Shown piece after piece: positions 4,298-64,000 of a DNA stretch of 64,000 bases. Numbering within the stretch: position 1 is the first letter of the stretch; every line of letters begins with the position of its first letter. The DNA lies in the NCBI GenBank assembly GCA_951406725.2, contig OX597815.1, forward strand, positions 163,494,001 to 163,558,000, given 5' to 3'. Source of the stretch: Octopus vulgaris. Lineage: Eukaryota. The translations under genes and the position numbers were made by a program. The notes beneath the pieces were generated by a model that was not told the DNA's origin, did not search any database, and saw only the letters and a list, made by a program, of their open reading frames with translations.

Positions 4298-4485
4298 CTT
4301 CGCCATGATTGATCGCTAGCCACTACACATTCTTTATTTTGTCTCCTTGTTCCTTTCTGTGTCCCTTTCTGTGGAAGAGCGTAGGCTCGAAACGTTAAAG
4401 ACTTTTTCACTTCCCGAACGTTATACTAATACATCTGTTTGTTGTCTACACCACCTCTCTTCGTCTTTTTTTTTTTGTGAATTCT

Positions 4486-11025: not shown

Positions 11026-11310
11026 TTATTGCTTATTTAGCTTGGGTTCGAATTTATCAATAAAATTCTTTTCTCTGATTTTCCTCTCGATTTCACTTGG
11101 GCTGTGTAATTTGTAGAATGGAAATATTATATATATTTTCCGACCACATGTTGCTAGGTGGTTACTCAAAGGTATCTGACGGACCTCTGGGTCTCTAATC
11201 TGTTGCCGGTGTACACGTGAGCGTTCTAATAGTGCGTTTCCCGTCTGACCTACATATATTTCTTCACAATTTGGGCATTTGATGCAGTAAATTAAATTTC
11301 TGCTTTTGCA
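11026..11310 (-). pseudogene. GIY-YIG endonuclease domain of a Penelope-like element (Neptune-like), open frame without a start
   Basis: CKSRNLIYCIKCPNCEEIYVGQTGNALLERSRVHRQQI..PLSNH..RKIREKNFIDKFEPKLN: LIY/YVG motifs, catalytic R, E and N, CxxC..H..H. Confidence 0.85.
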
Positions 11311-11311
11311 G

Positions 11312-11343
<32 letters not shown>

Positions 11344-11344
11344 C

Positions 11345-11957
11345 ATGGTAAATGTTTTTCATTTCCAAATTTTGTTCCTGTCGAATCTTATCCGTTATTT
11401 TTGTGGTTCTATGTGTTGAATTTCACCCTAAGTGTGGACTCCTTATGTGTATAAATATACACTATCGTATAACTAATAAATAGTCTTCTTGACTAATTTT
11501 TTACACGTTAGACCACTGGAAATGTAAATTTTGATTGAATATTTTAAATTTAATTAAATTCCATTTCCCTTTTGATATGATTAAACATTATAACTTTTTG
11601 GATAATTTTCGGTTAAAGTTGGCGGTTTATTGTAGCTAACGATAGGACTGCGATTGCGCAGAAAAATTTGAAAAGTTACTTCGTATAAACAGTAGACAGA
11701 TAGCAGTCCTTGTCTTCTGTCTTATATGTTTTAACGCCAGGTTGGCCCTCGCCGATGAAGATCAGACCTTGTGAGTTCCCCTGACTTGCTAAAAGAAGAT
11801 CAGAAACCAATTTTGGTCTGGGGTATTAAATGGTAAATGTTTTTCATTTCCAAATTTTGTTCCAGTCGAATCTTATCCGTTATTTTTGTGGTTCTATGTG
11901 TTGAATTTCACCCTAAGTGTAGATTCCTTATGTGTATAAATATACACTATCGTATAA
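11345..11957 (+). mobile_element. Non-coding 485-bp monomer with 128-bp terminal direct repeat and hammerhead motif (retrozyme/pLTR-like)
   Basis: 11345-11472 matches 11830-11957 (3 mismatches); HHR at 11746-11823: CCCUCG-CCGAUGA-A-GAUC..GAUC-A-GAAA-CCAAuuUUGG-UC|UGGGG; microsatellites on both sides. Confidence 0.75.
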
Positions 11958-15706: not shown

Positions 15707-15880
15707 TTATATATTTACGTATGTGTTTGTGGGTGTATATGTATGTATGTATGTATGTATGTACGTATGTATATATTCAAGTGGAAACTAGCGAGAGATC
15801 AGTGAGTTGTCGTCACTGGAAAAAGTATATATATATATATTTGCATAGAGAACCACATCCCTTCGCCAACAGGTGGTTGT

Positions 15881-15925
15881 CATACGCTGATGAGGGGTCA
15901 ACACCCAGAAACTCGGGTCCGTGTG
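15881..15925 (+). ncRNA. Type I hammerhead ribozyme, intact core
   Basis: CAUACG-CUGAUGA-G-GGGU-caac-ACCC-A-GAAA-CUCGGG-UC|CGUGUG; 6-bp stem I; predicted cut after C15919. Confidence 0.8.
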
Positions 15926-16057
15926 TATCACGACAGGCTGGAGATGGGAAATACTGATAGGGCACAGAAAGTGTGTCAATAGCCAGCTGGAGGAGATGTC
16001 GTCATGGGACTACAAGCTACAATAGCATCAACCCTTAAGGGTTAGCCACATTTAGGA

Positions 16058-16158
<101 letters not shown>

Positions 16159-27829: not shown

Positions 27830-27899
<70 letters not shown>

Positions 27900-29265
27900 G
27901 TTTATATATTTGTTGCGCAAGATTTTTTATGTGAAGTCGTGTGTTGAAACAGATATTTTTATATTTCGGAATGGTCATTTTGCCAGTTTAGCCGATAAAA
28001 TCACACGCACTATATATTTGGTGTTATTTTGCTTCAGTGTTATTTATTTTTTACATTAATCTTAATCTTATTTCGGCCAGAGTTCTGTCGTCACATTCCT
28101 GTGACCGCATCAGTGGTCCTTTGTTTTCTTCTTTTTTATTTGTGTCTCTCCTTACTAACAGTCAGCTATTTTGTATTTCTATAGTATGTCTTCATTTGCG
28201 CATGCTTATATCTCTATGTGCGTCTATGTTTATTTAGTGTGTGTGTGGGGGGATGCCTGTAATATTTTTATCTTCTGTTCATATACGTTCATGTAATTTG
28301 TTTTTGTTGTTGTTGTTTTTGTTTATTCTTATTTTGTTCATGTGTTTACATCCACTTATTATTATCATTACATATGCTTGTATGTATGTATAACAACAAT
28401 ACTAGTAATAATAATAATAAAAAAAAACTTATATTGTTATTTATTTCTATTTGTTTATTTATCTGTGTATTTATTCTGTTTTCGGGATCCTCTACCGTCA
28501 TATGTTGTAGTGTGTGCTAGTGTTCCATCCTAGTTTCCTATTCAGGCTAGGTTTATTTTCTGTTATGTGTGTAGCTTCTGTAATTTGTCTGATTGTTGCA
28601 TCTGTTCTATGTGTGGACAATATTTTAATTTCTATGTTGTTGATTGATCCCCCGTGTTTCTATTCAGCGTGTTGGTACAGAATCGATGAGCTTTTACCTT
28701 CCTTGAGTTCTCTCCAATGTCATTTACCCGCTCTCCTATGCTTCTTGCCGTTTCCCCTACGTATATCGTTGTCTTGTTACTGCATCGTCCCTCTATACAT
28801 CTTATACTATAGACTACATTTCTGGCTTTACAGTTTGTTTGTGGGCTAAATCTACATACAGTACAGTACTTATCCGTACTGGGGGTTCTACTAAAATGAT
28901 AGGTTCTACCAATTATAGATTTGATAGGGTTGCCTGGCTTTTCAACAACCTTAATCCTTAGCTTAAGTTTGTCTAGGGTCCTTCTAAAGCGGTACGCCAG
29001 TCCACCTCCAGGGGTGGTGTCAACGAACATGACACTCTGGTATTTATGGCTATCATACCAAGAGTTGGCCTTCCCTATTTTCTTTTTTGTCCTTTCTATA
29101 GTGTTCCATGACTTGTTCCTATAGAGTGGGCAAATCCTATTCCTATCATTATATAATATATTATCAAATTTCTTCATGGTTCCTTTGTATACTCTGATCC
29201 TTTCTTTATGGCTGTAACCTGAGAACTGTATGCGGTGAATGAAATATTGTATGTGTCTCTTTAAC
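27900..29265 (-). mobile_element. 5'-truncated Penelope-like element: RT C-terminus, Cys linker, GIY-YIG, 3' UTR with decayed HHR
   Basis: FSGYSHKERI..VMFVDTTPGGGLA..IKVVEKPG..CTVC..NCKARNVVYSIRC..C..YVGETARSIGER, then (frameshifted) HWREL..H..RQITEA..PSLNRK; HHR relic at 28075-28119; (TA)n at both ends. Confidence 0.85.
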
Positions 29266-55349: not shown

Positions 55350-57630
55350 GAGGGGGGAGTGAACCAGAGAAGAAAACAGGATAGACTGCTAGCATTAAAA
55401 GACATCAACAGAAGGAAGCTACAAGAAATGATTAGAAAAGTAGATTCTCTTATCAGGAGGATAAATACTACAAATATAGAAGACACTAATTTATTGATCT
55501 ATGCGGGAGTAGTAGTAGTCACCAGAAGAAGCAGAAAGGATTTGGGACAGTAATAGAAGAGTTGAAACAGCGTATCATAGCAGTAGCGGGCAAGCTCTCT
55601 AGATATCAGAAAAGAATAGATCAGTATCGATAAAATAGATTATTTGACACAGATCAGAGGAGATGTTATAACCAAAGAAATAGTGGAGAACCAAGTACTG
55701 AAGATGAGAAACCTAGTGCAGAGGAAGCTAGAAAGATCTGGAGAAATATTTGGGATAAACCAGTCAATGATAATGGAGATGCAGTATGGTTAAAAGAAGT
55801 GAGAGAAGAAGTAGTGAGTGAGAAGCAGCCAGATTTAAGATTAGCTAGTGCATTAATGAGTAAAGTGTTAGGAAAAATGCTAAATTGGAAGGGACCAGGA
55901 CCAGATTTTGTTCATGGGTACTGGCTAAAGAAATTCAGTTGTTTACATGAGAAGCTGGGGAACAACTTCAGGATTGCTTAAAGGAGGAATAATACTAGAT
56001 TAGATGACTAGAGAAAGGACAATACACATGAGGAATAAGAGCAGCAAGGGCGATACGGCTAGCAGCCAATCACTTGCTTATCATTAGTGTGGAAGCTGTT
56101 AACAGGAATGCTTTCAGAAAGCCTTTATGAGCACCATGACGACCAGAATTTTCTACCAGAAGAACAGTAAGTTTGCAGGAAGAAGGCTAGAGGAACACAT
56201 GATCTATTATATCTAGACAAAGCAGTTCTAAATGAAGTAAAAGTTAGAAAACAATAGCATGGATAGATTATAGGAAGGCTTATGACATGATCCCACACAC
56301 ACGGATAAGTGAATGCTTGAGTATGTTCAGTATAGCAGTCAATACAAGAGAATTAATTAGCTTTAGCACAAAGAAATGGAAAGTCAATCAATATTCAGGT
56401 GACATACTCATAGGGAAAGTTAATATAAAAAAAGGAATTTTTGAGAGGAACGCGTTTAATGTTTGTTCTATGTTTGATCTCCACTCAGTTTGGTATTAAG
56501 GAAGGCTAAGGGAGGGTATCAGTTCAGAAAGAGTAATGGTAAAATTTGCTCTACATGGATGATGCGAAATTTTGGTAAGAATGAAAAAGAGACAAATTCT
56601 TTAATACAGATTGTAAGTCTCTTCAGCAAAGGCATGGTATTTGGCATAGATAAATGTGCAATATTAGTCATGAGAAGGAGATAGGTAGTCAACAGCGAAG
56701 GCATCAAATTACCAGATGGCCACACATAAAAATCATTGAAAGCAGGAAAGAGTTATAAGTATCTAGGAGTATTAGAATATGACAGAGTAGGAGTACATCA
56801 GAAAAGGTGAGGAAACTAATGAAGTCAAAGCTAAATCGTCCGAATCTAGTGAAGGCTGTAAATATTTGAGCAGTATCATTACTTAAATACTCAGCAACTT
56901 TTGTAGAGAGGACAAAAACTGAATTTGCAAGGCTAGACAGAACAAGGAATGGATTCAATATGAATGGAGGACTCCACCCAAGGGAAGGAGAAGCAAGATT
57001 ATACCCACCTAGAAAGGAGGATGGAAGAGGCTTAATATCAGTGGAAGACTGCGTGGAGTTAGCTAGAGTAGATATAGACAACTATGTATTTAATAGTGAA
57101 GAAAGTTTATTAAAAGCTGCCAGAGTCACAGAAATACATAGGGAATCCAAAATACCAAACGAACTTAAGCATCAGAAAAAAGAACAGAAATTATTTGACT
57201 GGTAGGAGAATGCGTTGCATAGTAGATTCCCAAAGATAATTTCAGCAAATAGTAGTAGTGAGACATGGTTATGGTTGCAGAAGGGAAAACTGAAGAGGGA
57301 GACAGAAAGTTTGTTAGAAGCTGCACAAGATCAAGCATTAAGGGCTAATTGGATAAAAGCCAAAATAGACAAAAGCCAAGTTGATTTCCAATGTAGATTA
57401 TGCAAATCAAAAGAGGGAATAGTTACTCATATAGTGATTGTAGCATGCTGTCACAGAAAGAACACAAGAAAAGACATAACAATCTAGGGAGAGCAATCCA
57501 CTGGGAGCTTTGTAGAAAGCTAGAATCTGAACACACTGATAAAAGATATGAACATGAACCTAGTAAAGTACTAGAAAGTAAGTAATACAAGATGTAGGAC
57601 TTTAACATTCGGACTGACAGAGCAATAGAA
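55350..57630 (+). pseudogene. Decayed Dong/R4-clade reverse transcriptase polyprotein
   Basis: NWKGPGPDFVHGYWLK, PITCLSLVWKLLT, LPEEQ, AWIDYRKAYDMIPH, LYMDD, FGIDKCA, YKYLG, RLYPPRKEDGRGL, AAQDQAL, CRLCK..HI..C, RHNNLGRAIHW; many stops and frameshifts. Confidence 0.92.
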
Positions 57631-60827: not shown

Positions 60828-60982
60828 GTTAATCCAAACATGAACAAATAGAAAACTCAACAACGCGAGGACGTGGAACAAGTATAGTGTTATTGGACAC
60901 TCAGGACAGGAAAGAAGGAGGAGTTAACGTTTCGAGCGAAGCTCTTCGTCAGAAACATAGAAAATGAAAAGGTCCAAAGAAG

Positions 60983-61049
<67 letters not shown>

Positions 61050-61234
61050 TAAGAAGAGAATATCAATAACGAGTAAAATATACGAAAACACATAACGAGA
61101 GACAAGTACAGAACAAAATACCAAATGAAGTCTAACTCTTCTTCAGTTGTACTCAGGACAGGAAAGAAGGAGGAGTTAACGTTTCGAGCGAAGCTCTTCG
61201 TCAGAAACATAGAAAATGAAAAGGTCCAAAGAAG

Positions 61235-61284
<50 letters not shown>

Positions 61285-61420
61285 AGAAGAGAATATCAAT
61301 AACGAGTAAAACGAGTAAAATAACGAGTAAAATATACGAAAACACATAACGAGAGACAAGTACAGAACAAAATACCAAATGAAGTCTAACTCTTCTTCAG
61401 TTGTCGACAGTTTATTACTT
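60828..61420 (-). mobile_element. Family F element with a 252-bp tandem duplication carrying two minimal HHRs
   Basis: Units 60899-61150 and 61151-61404; GUUU-CUGACGA-A-GAGC-uuc-GCUC-GAAA-CG-UU-AAC at 60923-60956 and 61175-61208. Confidence 0.8.
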
Positions 61421-62711: not shown

Positions 62712-63055
62712 TGGAGCCATTGTACCTGTTGGGAAAAGAAATGAGAAAATGAAAATATATACTGTTATTGCATAGTAGCCTTAGAGACAATAGCCAACAT
62801 TCTATAGTTGAGGGTAACGGACGCACAAACTCTACAATCTTTGCGTATGTAAGTGTGGATAAGTATGTATGTATATATATATATATATATGTATATATTG
62901 GCAGGGCTGGCCTGCTAGGTAGCCGGCCAGAATGCTAGAAATAGATCATAAACGATCAAACTACAAGGGAAATTCTCTAGAGGAAGAATTCAGCGAACAC
63001 CAGAACCAAATTTGGCGGGCAGGACATATGAAAAATTAAATAAAAAACAGACTTA

Positions 63056-63131
63056 AATGCATACCTCGGTTTCGGTCTTAACAAAAGAATTACTTGCATA
63101 ATTCAAGTGTCCGTGACTTCTTCAGTACATT
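63056..63131 (-). ncRNA. Type I hammerhead ribozyme (inverted copy), intact
   Basis: AAUGUA-CUGAAGA-A-GUC..ACUUG-loop-CAAGU..GAC-C-GAAA-CCgaGG-UA|UGCAUU; 6-bp stem I. Confidence 0.78.
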
Positions 63132-63661
63132 CGGTCCCCGAGATGCAAACCGCAAGACTAACCCCAGCTCTCTGTGTCAAGACAGACACGTGCTTAGTCT
63201 TACTGATTACATCGGGAATAAAATTTCAAATGTCTTGGTTCCGGCGCGCTAAGAGACTCCTGAAGCGATCAAACTACAAGGGAAATTCTGATCGTTTATG
63301 ATCTATTTCTAGCATTCTGGCCGGCTACCTAGCAGGCCAGCCCTGCCAATATACACATATATTTGAATTTTCTCTGACTCCTCAGATTTTTTGAATGCTG
63401 GACTACTGGTTTTAAATTGATATTAAAATTAATATTAATTTATCTCCCTCAATTTTTAAATATTTAAATTAATACGTTCCCTAGTAGTAAGCTTTACCCG
63501 CAGTGAATTATTCACTGCAGCCCTTCGCTTCAGGAGTCTCTTAGCGCGCCGGAACCAAGACATTTGAAATTTTATTCCCGATGTAATCAGTAAGACTAAG
63601 CACGTGTCTGTCTTGACACAGAGAGCTGGGGTTAGTCTTGCGGTTTGCATCTCGAGGACCG

Positions 63662-63737
63662 AATGTACTGAAGAAGTCACGGACACTTGAATTATGCAAG
63701 TAATTCTTTTGTTAAGACCGAAACCGAGGTAGGCATT
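63662..63737 (+). ncRNA. Type I hammerhead ribozyme (tandem copy)
   Basis: Same motif, but the first base after GUA is G, mismatching the closing pair of stem I. Confidence 0.72.
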
Positions 63738-64000
63738 TAAGTCTGTTTTTTATTTAATTTTTCATATGTCCTGCCCGCCAAATTTGGTTCTGGTGTTCGC
63801 TGAATTCTTCCTCTAGAGAATTTCCCTTGTAGTTTGATCGTTTATGATCTATTTCTAGCATTCTGGCCGGCTACCTAGCAGGCCAGCCCTGCCAATATAC
63901 ACATATATTTGAATTTTCTCTGACTCCTCAGATTTTTTGAATGCTGGACTACTGGTTTTAAATTGATATTAAAATTAATATTAATTTATCTCCCTCAATT

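Follow-up and report, generated by a model that had tools for sequence, protein, structure and literature searches.

A very young, protein-free hammerhead element in Octopus vulgaris, probably inserted as a miniature Penelope-like element

The window, a stretch of 64,000 nucleotides from Octopus vulgaris (assembly GCA_951406725.2, contig OX597815.1, positions 163,494,001 to 163,558,000 of the forward strand), ends inside a repetitive element that carries a hammerhead ribozyme motif (HHR). Self-comparison of the sequence determined that positions 63289-63454 are identical to 63835-64000 (166 of 166) with a period of 546 nt, and that this match reaches the window edge. An inverted arm at 62894-63268 is complementary to 63525-63899 at 373 of 375 positions, with mismatches at 63061/63732 and 63138/63655. 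An earlier note, made from the sequence alone, had described both a 546-bp head-to-tail unit with 166 identical base pairs visible of a second unit and a 375-bp inverted copy with two differences, and both descriptions are confirmed. The alignment of the inverted arm can be extended to 62885/63908 through TA-like homology with one further mismatch, and a TA-like stretch at the left end of the element allows its exact limit to be put anywhere from 62885 to 62894. The left junction, placed from the sequence and the inverted alignment, adjoins a (TA)n/(GTAT)n microsatellite of the host at 62865..62893. The insertion into (TA)n claimed in the earlier note therefore holds for the left flank, the only visible (TA)n flank, while the right end lies beyond the window.

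The element features four segments. The first is the inverted 5'-truncated copy of unit positions 63525-63899, which lies on the minus strand at 62894..63268 with its 3' end toward the left flank. The second is a short inverted filler of 23-27 nt at about 63263..63289 on the minus strand, which aligns to unit positions about 63817-63843, is joined to its neighbours via microhomologies of 3 nt and 1 nt, and is likely a template-switch scar. This is followed by a 5'-truncated, pseudo-LTR-like (pLTR) partial repeat of about 175 nt on the plus strand at 63289..63463, which is identical to the window's last 166 nt over its visible counterpart and whose end at 63463 is inferred from the 3' ends of the family. 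The last segment is the full 546-nt non-coding unit with a GC content of 38.8%, at 63464..64000 on the plus strand, with bounds likewise set by the family 3' end. The right end of this unit is predicted at ~64007-64009, followed by (TA)n or a further unit. The order of the locus is probably (TA)n, inverted 5'-truncated copy, filler, ~175-nt partial repeat, full unit, and then (TA)n starting ~9 nt outside the window; alternatively, a tandem array could continue past the window edge in place of the (TA)n end. Two nearby repeat copies (families D9, D10, D12) are just 77-84% alike, and the 546-nt element is therefore very young.

The element appears to have no coding capacity. The longest stop-to-stop frame within it spans 97 aa and matches nothing in Pfam, a result that bears out the earlier statement that there is no credible protein, and a hidden protein was rejected as a candidate on these grounds. 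No ORF with RT and GIY-YIG domains was found between pLTRs in the unit (window sequence to 64000), and the unit closes on itself in public sequencing runs. Simple patterns for a Pol III A/B box, a TATA box, and a sense AATAAA had no match in the unit. The unit is, however, highly folded when set against shuffled sequence, with a fold of -149.1 kcal/mol (z = -5.2) that none of 100 shuffles equalled. The fold features a palindromic hairpin with 9-bp arms at 63500..63518 (+) and a long hairpin 5' of the HHR at 63582..63649 (+), and all three hairpins named in the earlier note are high-probability helices. It also features a GC-rich hairpin at 63864..63887 (+), located 12-21 nt upstream of a minor 3' end (63899-63908), and an AT-rich 13-bp hairpin at 63959..63988 (+), found also at 63413-63442, located ~20 nt before the major 3' end. 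This AT-rich hairpin and the inverted filler were overlooked in the earlier note. Relatives with different upstream sequence have the unit's last 60-70 nt in common, and the end that carries the AT-rich hairpin is a candidate RT-recognition end.

The HHR on the plus strand at 63656..63744 was assigned as a type I motif of the PLE (Penelope-like) variant using a descriptor, folds, and published hallmarks (PMC4209133). Its core consists of CUGAAGA at 63668-63674, GAAA at 63720-63723, and GUA at 63729-63731, with cleavage predicted after 63731. Helix I is formed by 63661-63667 and 63732-63738 plus a 4-bp extension. There is an extra nucleotide, A63675, and helix II is weak (63676-63678 with 63716-63719) and capped by a long insert; G63676 pairs with C63719, leaving C63718 bulged, or with C63718. 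Helix III, at 63723-63730, is palindromic and its self-complementary duplex has an energy of -6.6 kcal/mol. PLE hammerheads are described as having one additional nucleotide ahead of G10.1, a C directly before GAAA, and a helix III that is short and palindromic, and a bulge in helix II is possible, as in Penelope of D. virilis (PMC4209133). The octopus HHR carries the extra nucleotide, the C before GAAA, and the palindromic helix III, and judged by these hallmarks it is the PLE, dimer-type variant. Hammerheads of this type were reported to function as dimers with low activity (PMC4209133), and their dimer requirement has been reviewed (PMC6765202).

The two visible copies of the motif are not equivalent. 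G63732 is private to the direct copy and breaks pair 1.1, which results in an A.G mismatch beside the cut site, whereas T is found at 63732 in all four of the sequencing runs that were aligned. The HHR of the inverted copy, on the minus strand at 63048..63138 (core at 63125, cut predicted after 63062), has the family-type allele and is the only one with a full 7-bp helix I. The core, the GUA triplet, and the cut after 63731 given in the earlier note were correct, but the private mismatch beside the cut site is a correction to it. Similarly, its claim that each unit has one HHR stands for the first unit (63668-63731), while the HHR of a second unit would fall at ~64214, past the window, so one sense HHR is visible in the element. 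A strict HHR descriptor matched three places in the 64-kb window and, among 5000 dinucleotide shuffles of the unit, 3; the places in the window are 63668(+), 63125(-), and an unrelated site at 15887(+). Rfam, with its HHR families included, gave no match at the gathering threshold over the 64 kb, and at E<=10 it gave 10 chance-level matches and no HHR over 62800-64000.

Folding calculations support a dimeric active form for the family-type allele. Two copies of the inverted-arm allele adopt the active dimer in an unconstrained fold (-40.6 kcal/mol), and self-cleavage of the family-type dimer is predicted from this model. The unconstrained two-strand fold of the direct-copy allele loses helices II and III, and the active form merely ties. 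In the context of the unit the helix I pair probability is <0.1 and helix II is weak. Variation within the family revealed no significant constraint on the 22-nt HHR core (0 of 40 variants inside it, p ~0.19), nor on structure, since 8 of 40 variants fall in high-probability pairs, which occupy 138 of 546 positions, and 5 of the 8 break the pair. A transcript across the locus folds to a 375-bp duplex of -813 kcal/mol with the HHR buried inside.

Public sequencing runs reveal a multi-copy family. The unit is present in 20 of the 24 runs listed, from 10 studies with 4 organism labels, where 45-81% of sampled words were found; none of these runs is recorded as RNA, an outcome with no bearing on expression. 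Contigs from four runs (X1, X3, X5, and X15) were aligned to 63455-64000 at 85% likeness; X1 was covered to ~80%, X1, X3, and X15 are DNA-like, and X5 is a guessed RNA run that may hold DNA. X1 features 1023 contigs from ~80% of the run, of which 348 are at 99+% identity, 369 at 95-99%, 220 at 90-95%, and 86 below 90%. All 29 bins of the unit are covered in all four runs, and two tiling gaps in X15 are bridged by X3 and X5 records. The head-to-tail joint (64000 to 63455) was found in three of the four runs (X1, X5, and X15), in contigs that fit a circle or a tandem array alike and from which the unit number is unreadable. This joint, together with the end-to-end cover in all four runs, indicates that the unit represents a family rather than a single deleted copy. 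In X5 the unit is tiled into a loop by contigs, which by nature show neither RNA ends nor circles. The contig depth in X5 is level round the unit, although the run type is guessed and contig depth is no measure of expression. X3 and X15 both have greater contig depth at the 3' end, a weak signal as contig depth is no copy number.

The loose ends of the contigs define where copies of the family stop. In X1, X3, and X15, loose ends after 63997 continue for ten letters and then enter (AT)n, which places the major 3' end of the family at ~64007-64009. The (AT)n-terminated contigs differ from the window by two letters and are therefore sibling copies. A minor 3' end at 63908, seen in 3 X1 contigs in which 63908 is joined to an AT run, is the point where the inverted arm of the locus meets its flank. 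Among the rows listed there are two 3' ends, ~100 nt apart. In the DNA-like runs, shares of 0, 0.10, and 0.06 of the aligned sequence continue into unlike letters, compared with 0.32 in X5, which features diverged relatives with other upstream sequence; one X5 relative diverges over 176 letters before 63577. Relatives that share the last 60-70 nt only account for the loose ends before 63934 (X1) and 63941 (X5), and others skip 63862-63933. The diverged relatives in the X1 and X5 loose ends are possibly sister families or an autonomous partner. No RT-GIY-YIG ORF was found in contig exits among the rows listed, where the 3' exits in DNA-like runs are (AT)n; with the ORF-free unit, this supports the non-autonomy proposed in the earlier note. 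A further 60 loose ends, 2 variant rows, and 1045 pieces lie beyond that listing and may include an ORF exit or additional 3' ends. In searches for the motif elsewhere, a loose HHR pattern matched at least 120 loci in viral contigs, none similar to the unit at E<=0.01, which is attributed to chance, and specific patterns had no match in metagenome contigs or in prokaryote genomes.

A rare allele connects the three segments of the locus. T63843 is found at both tandem positions (63843 and 63297) and in the inverted arm (complement at 62950). In the family this position is G, with 252,157 of 252,783 summed depth in X1 and all depth in X3, X5, and X15; T accounts for ~0.25% of the X1 depth. The sharing of this rare T by all three segments suggests that one unit-length template was recopied, which could be a circle or else a cut monomer whose copying jumped from one end to the other. 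Alternatively, the T could derive from a homogenised tandem source or from a source subfamily that is lacking in the four runs.

The anatomy of the locus is that of a PLE insertion. Craig et al. 2021 (PMC8557442) described PLE insertions in which a partial tandem forms a pLTR and an inverted copy, truncated at its 5' end, lies beside it, and both are present here. A microsatellite or AT-rich target is also present, in the left flank and in the (AT)n exits of family copies in three of the four runs. The PLE protein was reported to nick and extend both strands, with an internal RT start at AT-rich targets (Frangieh et al. 2024, PMC11167929). The locus is probably a miniature PLE insertion made of an inverted truncated copy, a partial repeat, and one unit, and the recent, non-coding, multi-copy, PLE-type character put forward in the earlier note is supported. 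The locus has a 3' end on either outer side, as would be expected of a PLE protein with internal starts and with nicking and extension of both strands. Such outer 3' ends on both sides resemble L1 twin priming.

With moderate confidence, the locus is read as a single, very recent insertion from an Octopus family of protein-free 546-nt elements, for which a hammerhead-bearing PLE likely supplied the copying RT/endonuclease. That the element is of a non-autonomous PLE type is held with high confidence, and a unit-length template read more than once round is favoured, on balance, by the shared alleles. In the proposed sequence of events, a source locus with two or more units would be transcribed, and two hammerheads are predicted to pair via the palindromic helix III and to excise a unit-length RNA that is likely ligated to a circle. 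A PLE protein would then nick both strands of the (TA)n target. One nick would prime at the major start, ~64007-64009, and copy ~1.3 rounds, giving 721 nt (partial repeat plus unit), and the other would prime at the internal TA-like site 63899-63908 and copy 375 nt the opposite way. The two cDNAs would be joined through the short template-switch filler. The product, as the sequence and folding show, has a single sense HHR, privately mismatched beside the cut, and an antisense arm of 375 bp, features that make the window copy probably a dead-end daughter and not a circle factory. The template for the insertion was likely a circle. The earlier note had a read-through transcript of this copy cleave itself to a 546-nt monomer, which is not supported for this copy, given the one visible sense HHR, its private mismatch, the 375-bp duplex, and an element that probably ends ~9 nt past the window. 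Release of a monomer needs two sense HHRs and the one that is visible is damaged, so such a step is confined to family members at other loci; at the level of the family circular RNA may reasonably be inferred. A broader reading, that an Octopus family is currently spreading via a hammerhead-cut circular RNA of 546 nt copied in trans by a PLE, its insertions recording the reaction (more than one round per template, priming from both nicked strands, two RT starts), is put forward tentatively.

The same element and PLE partner could also have used a linear template. Here the template would be an uncleaved read-through RNA of a tandem source, RT would start internally, and the HHR would be a passenger of the pLTR with no circle involved. 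This main rival is considered unlikely, yet it has experimental precedent in the anole PLE (Frangieh et al. 2024, PMC11167929), where HHR mutants insert normally, no RNA reads end at the cut site, insertion does without cleavage, and the substrate is mainly uncleaved RNA. In addition, Naiads are described as spreading without an HHR (PMC8557442), and cleavage was reported in just 1 of 9 Xenopus retrozyme dimers (bioRxiv 10.64898/2026.07.22.740005). The poor folding of the HHR in the context of the unit agrees with a linear template, as does a 375-nt X5 record that runs 65 nt across the cut site, although the record could equally well come from uncleaved RNA, from a ligated circle, or from DNA. 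However, a linear template requires the rare T63843 to have been present beforehand in two adjacent source units, by way of a homogenised array or conversion. The family has also kept the full helix I pair at 63732, and in one relative, seen in one X1 loose end and thus weak, the 5' strand of helix I would, given an unaltered 3' strand, replace a wobble with a Watson-Crick pair.

Three further explanations place the origin of the locus elsewhere. The visible sequence could be the terminal-repeat region of an ordinary autonomous PLE with its ORF past the window, or a one-off internally deleted copy. Every structural hallmark is of the PLE type, the window edge falls inside the element, and the X5 relative with the 176-letter divergence and those sharing only the terminal 60-70 nt would suit such a parent; this explanation is nevertheless improbable because the 380 nt between repeats hold no ORF, the 3' DNA exits among the rows listed are (AT)n, and the unit recurs as a family. 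A satellite-like repeat derived from an old PLE remnant and multiplied as DNA, by unequal crossing-over or local duplication with inversion and with no RNA intermediate now, is very improbable. Li et al. proposed local tandem amplification from pLTRs (bioRxiv 10.64898/2026.07.22.740005) and T63843 would likewise be common to locally duplicated segments, but the defined (AT)n-joined 3' ends in several runs, the microhomology filler at the inversion point, and, weakly, the greater 3' contig depth in X3 and X15 fit target-primed reverse transcription. The near-perfect inverted repeats at or near a contig end could finally result from a fold-back chimera of assembly or library, and the G63732 of the window is matched by none of the four aligned runs, with no record that spans the locus. 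Such an artefact is extremely improbable, however, as the arms differ at two places, each off the family allele in a different arm (rows listed), the left end point recurs in X1 contigs, another strand-switch joint is also found in X1, and inverted copies are normal in PLEs (PMC8557442).

Compared with known systems, the sequence features point to an animal non-LTR retrozyme or non-autonomous PLE, a class known from mussels, corals, and vertebrates (PMC7229834; bioRxiv 10.64898/2026.07.22.740005; PMC8557442). Animal non-LTR retrozymes are described as non-coding type I HHR repeats whose RNA is found as circles in coral, mussel, and axolotl and with PLEs as the proposed partner (PMC7229834), and a 2026 preprint by Li, Clavereau & Pollet terms families of 51-972 bp related to pLTRs non-autonomous PLE derivatives (bioRxiv 10.64898/2026.07.22.740005). 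The octopus unit is likewise non-coding, AT-rich (<45% GC), highly folded, and multi-copy, with a type I HHR and head-to-tail junctions, and its 546 nt lie inside the range of the preprint. It also co-occurs with PLEs, as remains of a PLE ORF with a C-terminal GIY-YIG are present in the same window, and the mussel retrozymes of 350-390 bp provide a mollusc precedent (PMC7229834). Its length, GC content of 38.8%, lack of coding sequence, type I HHR, and PLE co-occurrence thus point to retrozyme membership at the level of sequence features. The differences are that the octopus HHR is the PLE-type variant and not the canonical retrozyme HHR, that the unit exceeds the 170-400 nt of invertebrate examples, and that the retrozyme descriptions compared mention neither an inverted copy in the manner of PLEs nor 3' ends defined by (TA)n. 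The preprint sets a rule of two consecutive complete HHRs, whereas the octopus locus, as far as it is visible, has one sense HHR.

EN+ PLEs of the Neptune/Poseidon type share the partial tandem, the adjacent inverted 5'-truncated copy, and the microsatellite or AT-rich target (PMC8557442), as well as more than one 3' start point and an HHR of the dimer type, in which helix III is palindromic and an additional nucleotide precedes G10.1 (PMC4209133, PMC11167929). In contrast, the octopus element is without an RT-GIY-YIG ORF, has a body of 380 nt instead of about 3 kb, and has 3' ends ~100 nt apart (rows listed), compared with a 30-40-nt tail between the RT starts described. In its sequence anatomy the element appears to behave like a non-autonomous PLE. 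The Chlamydomonas element MRC1, a non-autonomous Chlamys PLE, is similar in that it is a non-coding PLE parasite with pLTRs, head-to-tail insertions, and 3' ends common to other families, but it is from an alga and another PLE clade, and canonical HHRs are reported as mostly undetected (PMC8557442). Plant LTR retrozymes are also non-coding and HHR-bearing with a proposed circular intermediate (PMC7229834; bioRxiv 10.64898/2026.07.22.740005), whereas their HHR is of type III and sits in true LTRs, accompanied by PBS/PPT and by target duplications of 4 bp, and the octopus element has a type I HHR and no LTR pair. Penelope elements are abundant in coleoid genomes (PMC8967140). In agreement with the earlier note, no description of an Octopus or cephalopod family of this kind was found in the literature; Repbase, Dfam, and paper supplements were outside the scope of that search and may contain one.

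The mechanism of retrozyme mobilisation is stated to remain to be elucidated (bioRxiv 10.64898/2026.07.22.740005). The family bears on how retrozymes mobilise and on whether PLE hammerheads act in transposition; the one in-vitro PLE study cited above found cleavage dispensable (PMC11167929). In a young, multi-copy, ORF-free family with PLE marks, circular and linear templates can be distinguished in genome sequence using the private variants of the two repeats of each copy. Mobilisation from circles, if true, would provide direct insertion-level evidence that animal retrozymes are moved by PLE machinery from circles, and would be the first cephalopod case described within the literature searched. 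Such loci, if transcribed, would also give long perfect double-stranded RNA. Such RNA is relevant to animals in which A-to-I editing is heavy.

The window contains other PLE and hammerhead remains. A PLE-type GIY-YIG endonuclease fragment at 11029-11358 (-) matches Pfam PF01541 (E 1.2e-6) and starts at a (TA)n tract. A 5'-truncated PLE at 27880-29264 (-), identified by an RT-protein match, features an RT thumb, a CxxC linker, and the start of a GIY-YIG domain and ends on (TA)n. Its part at 28635-29264 (-) shares 89% identity with an O. vulgaris RT protein of 803 aa that carries a DKSG motif (1 match among 247 candidates), and a degenerate hammerhead-like core lies near 28110 in its 3' region. 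A second type I HHR is found at 15830-16062 (+) in a ~230-bp piece between (TA)n tracts, with its core at 15887, a 6-bp helix I, and a cut predicted after 15919. This piece is single-copy in the window, folds no better than shuffles (z 0.17), and is probably the 3' remnant of another PLE family. A similarity search of the unit against the PLE remains within the window gave no match, and both these remains and the 15830-16062 element are unrelated to the unit. The frames at 55634-57205 are like a decayed non-LTR retrotransposon protein, with no Pfam match for the two frames tested, and presumably are RTE-like. A local tandem duplication of ~252 bp at 60899-61404 features HHR cores on the minus strand at 60952 and 61204, with CUGACGA, a short helix II, GAAA, and an unclear helix I. 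Hammerhead cores of this type are probably abundant PLE 3'-end remnants. Degenerate versions of the same core are located at 4369(+) and 42225(-).
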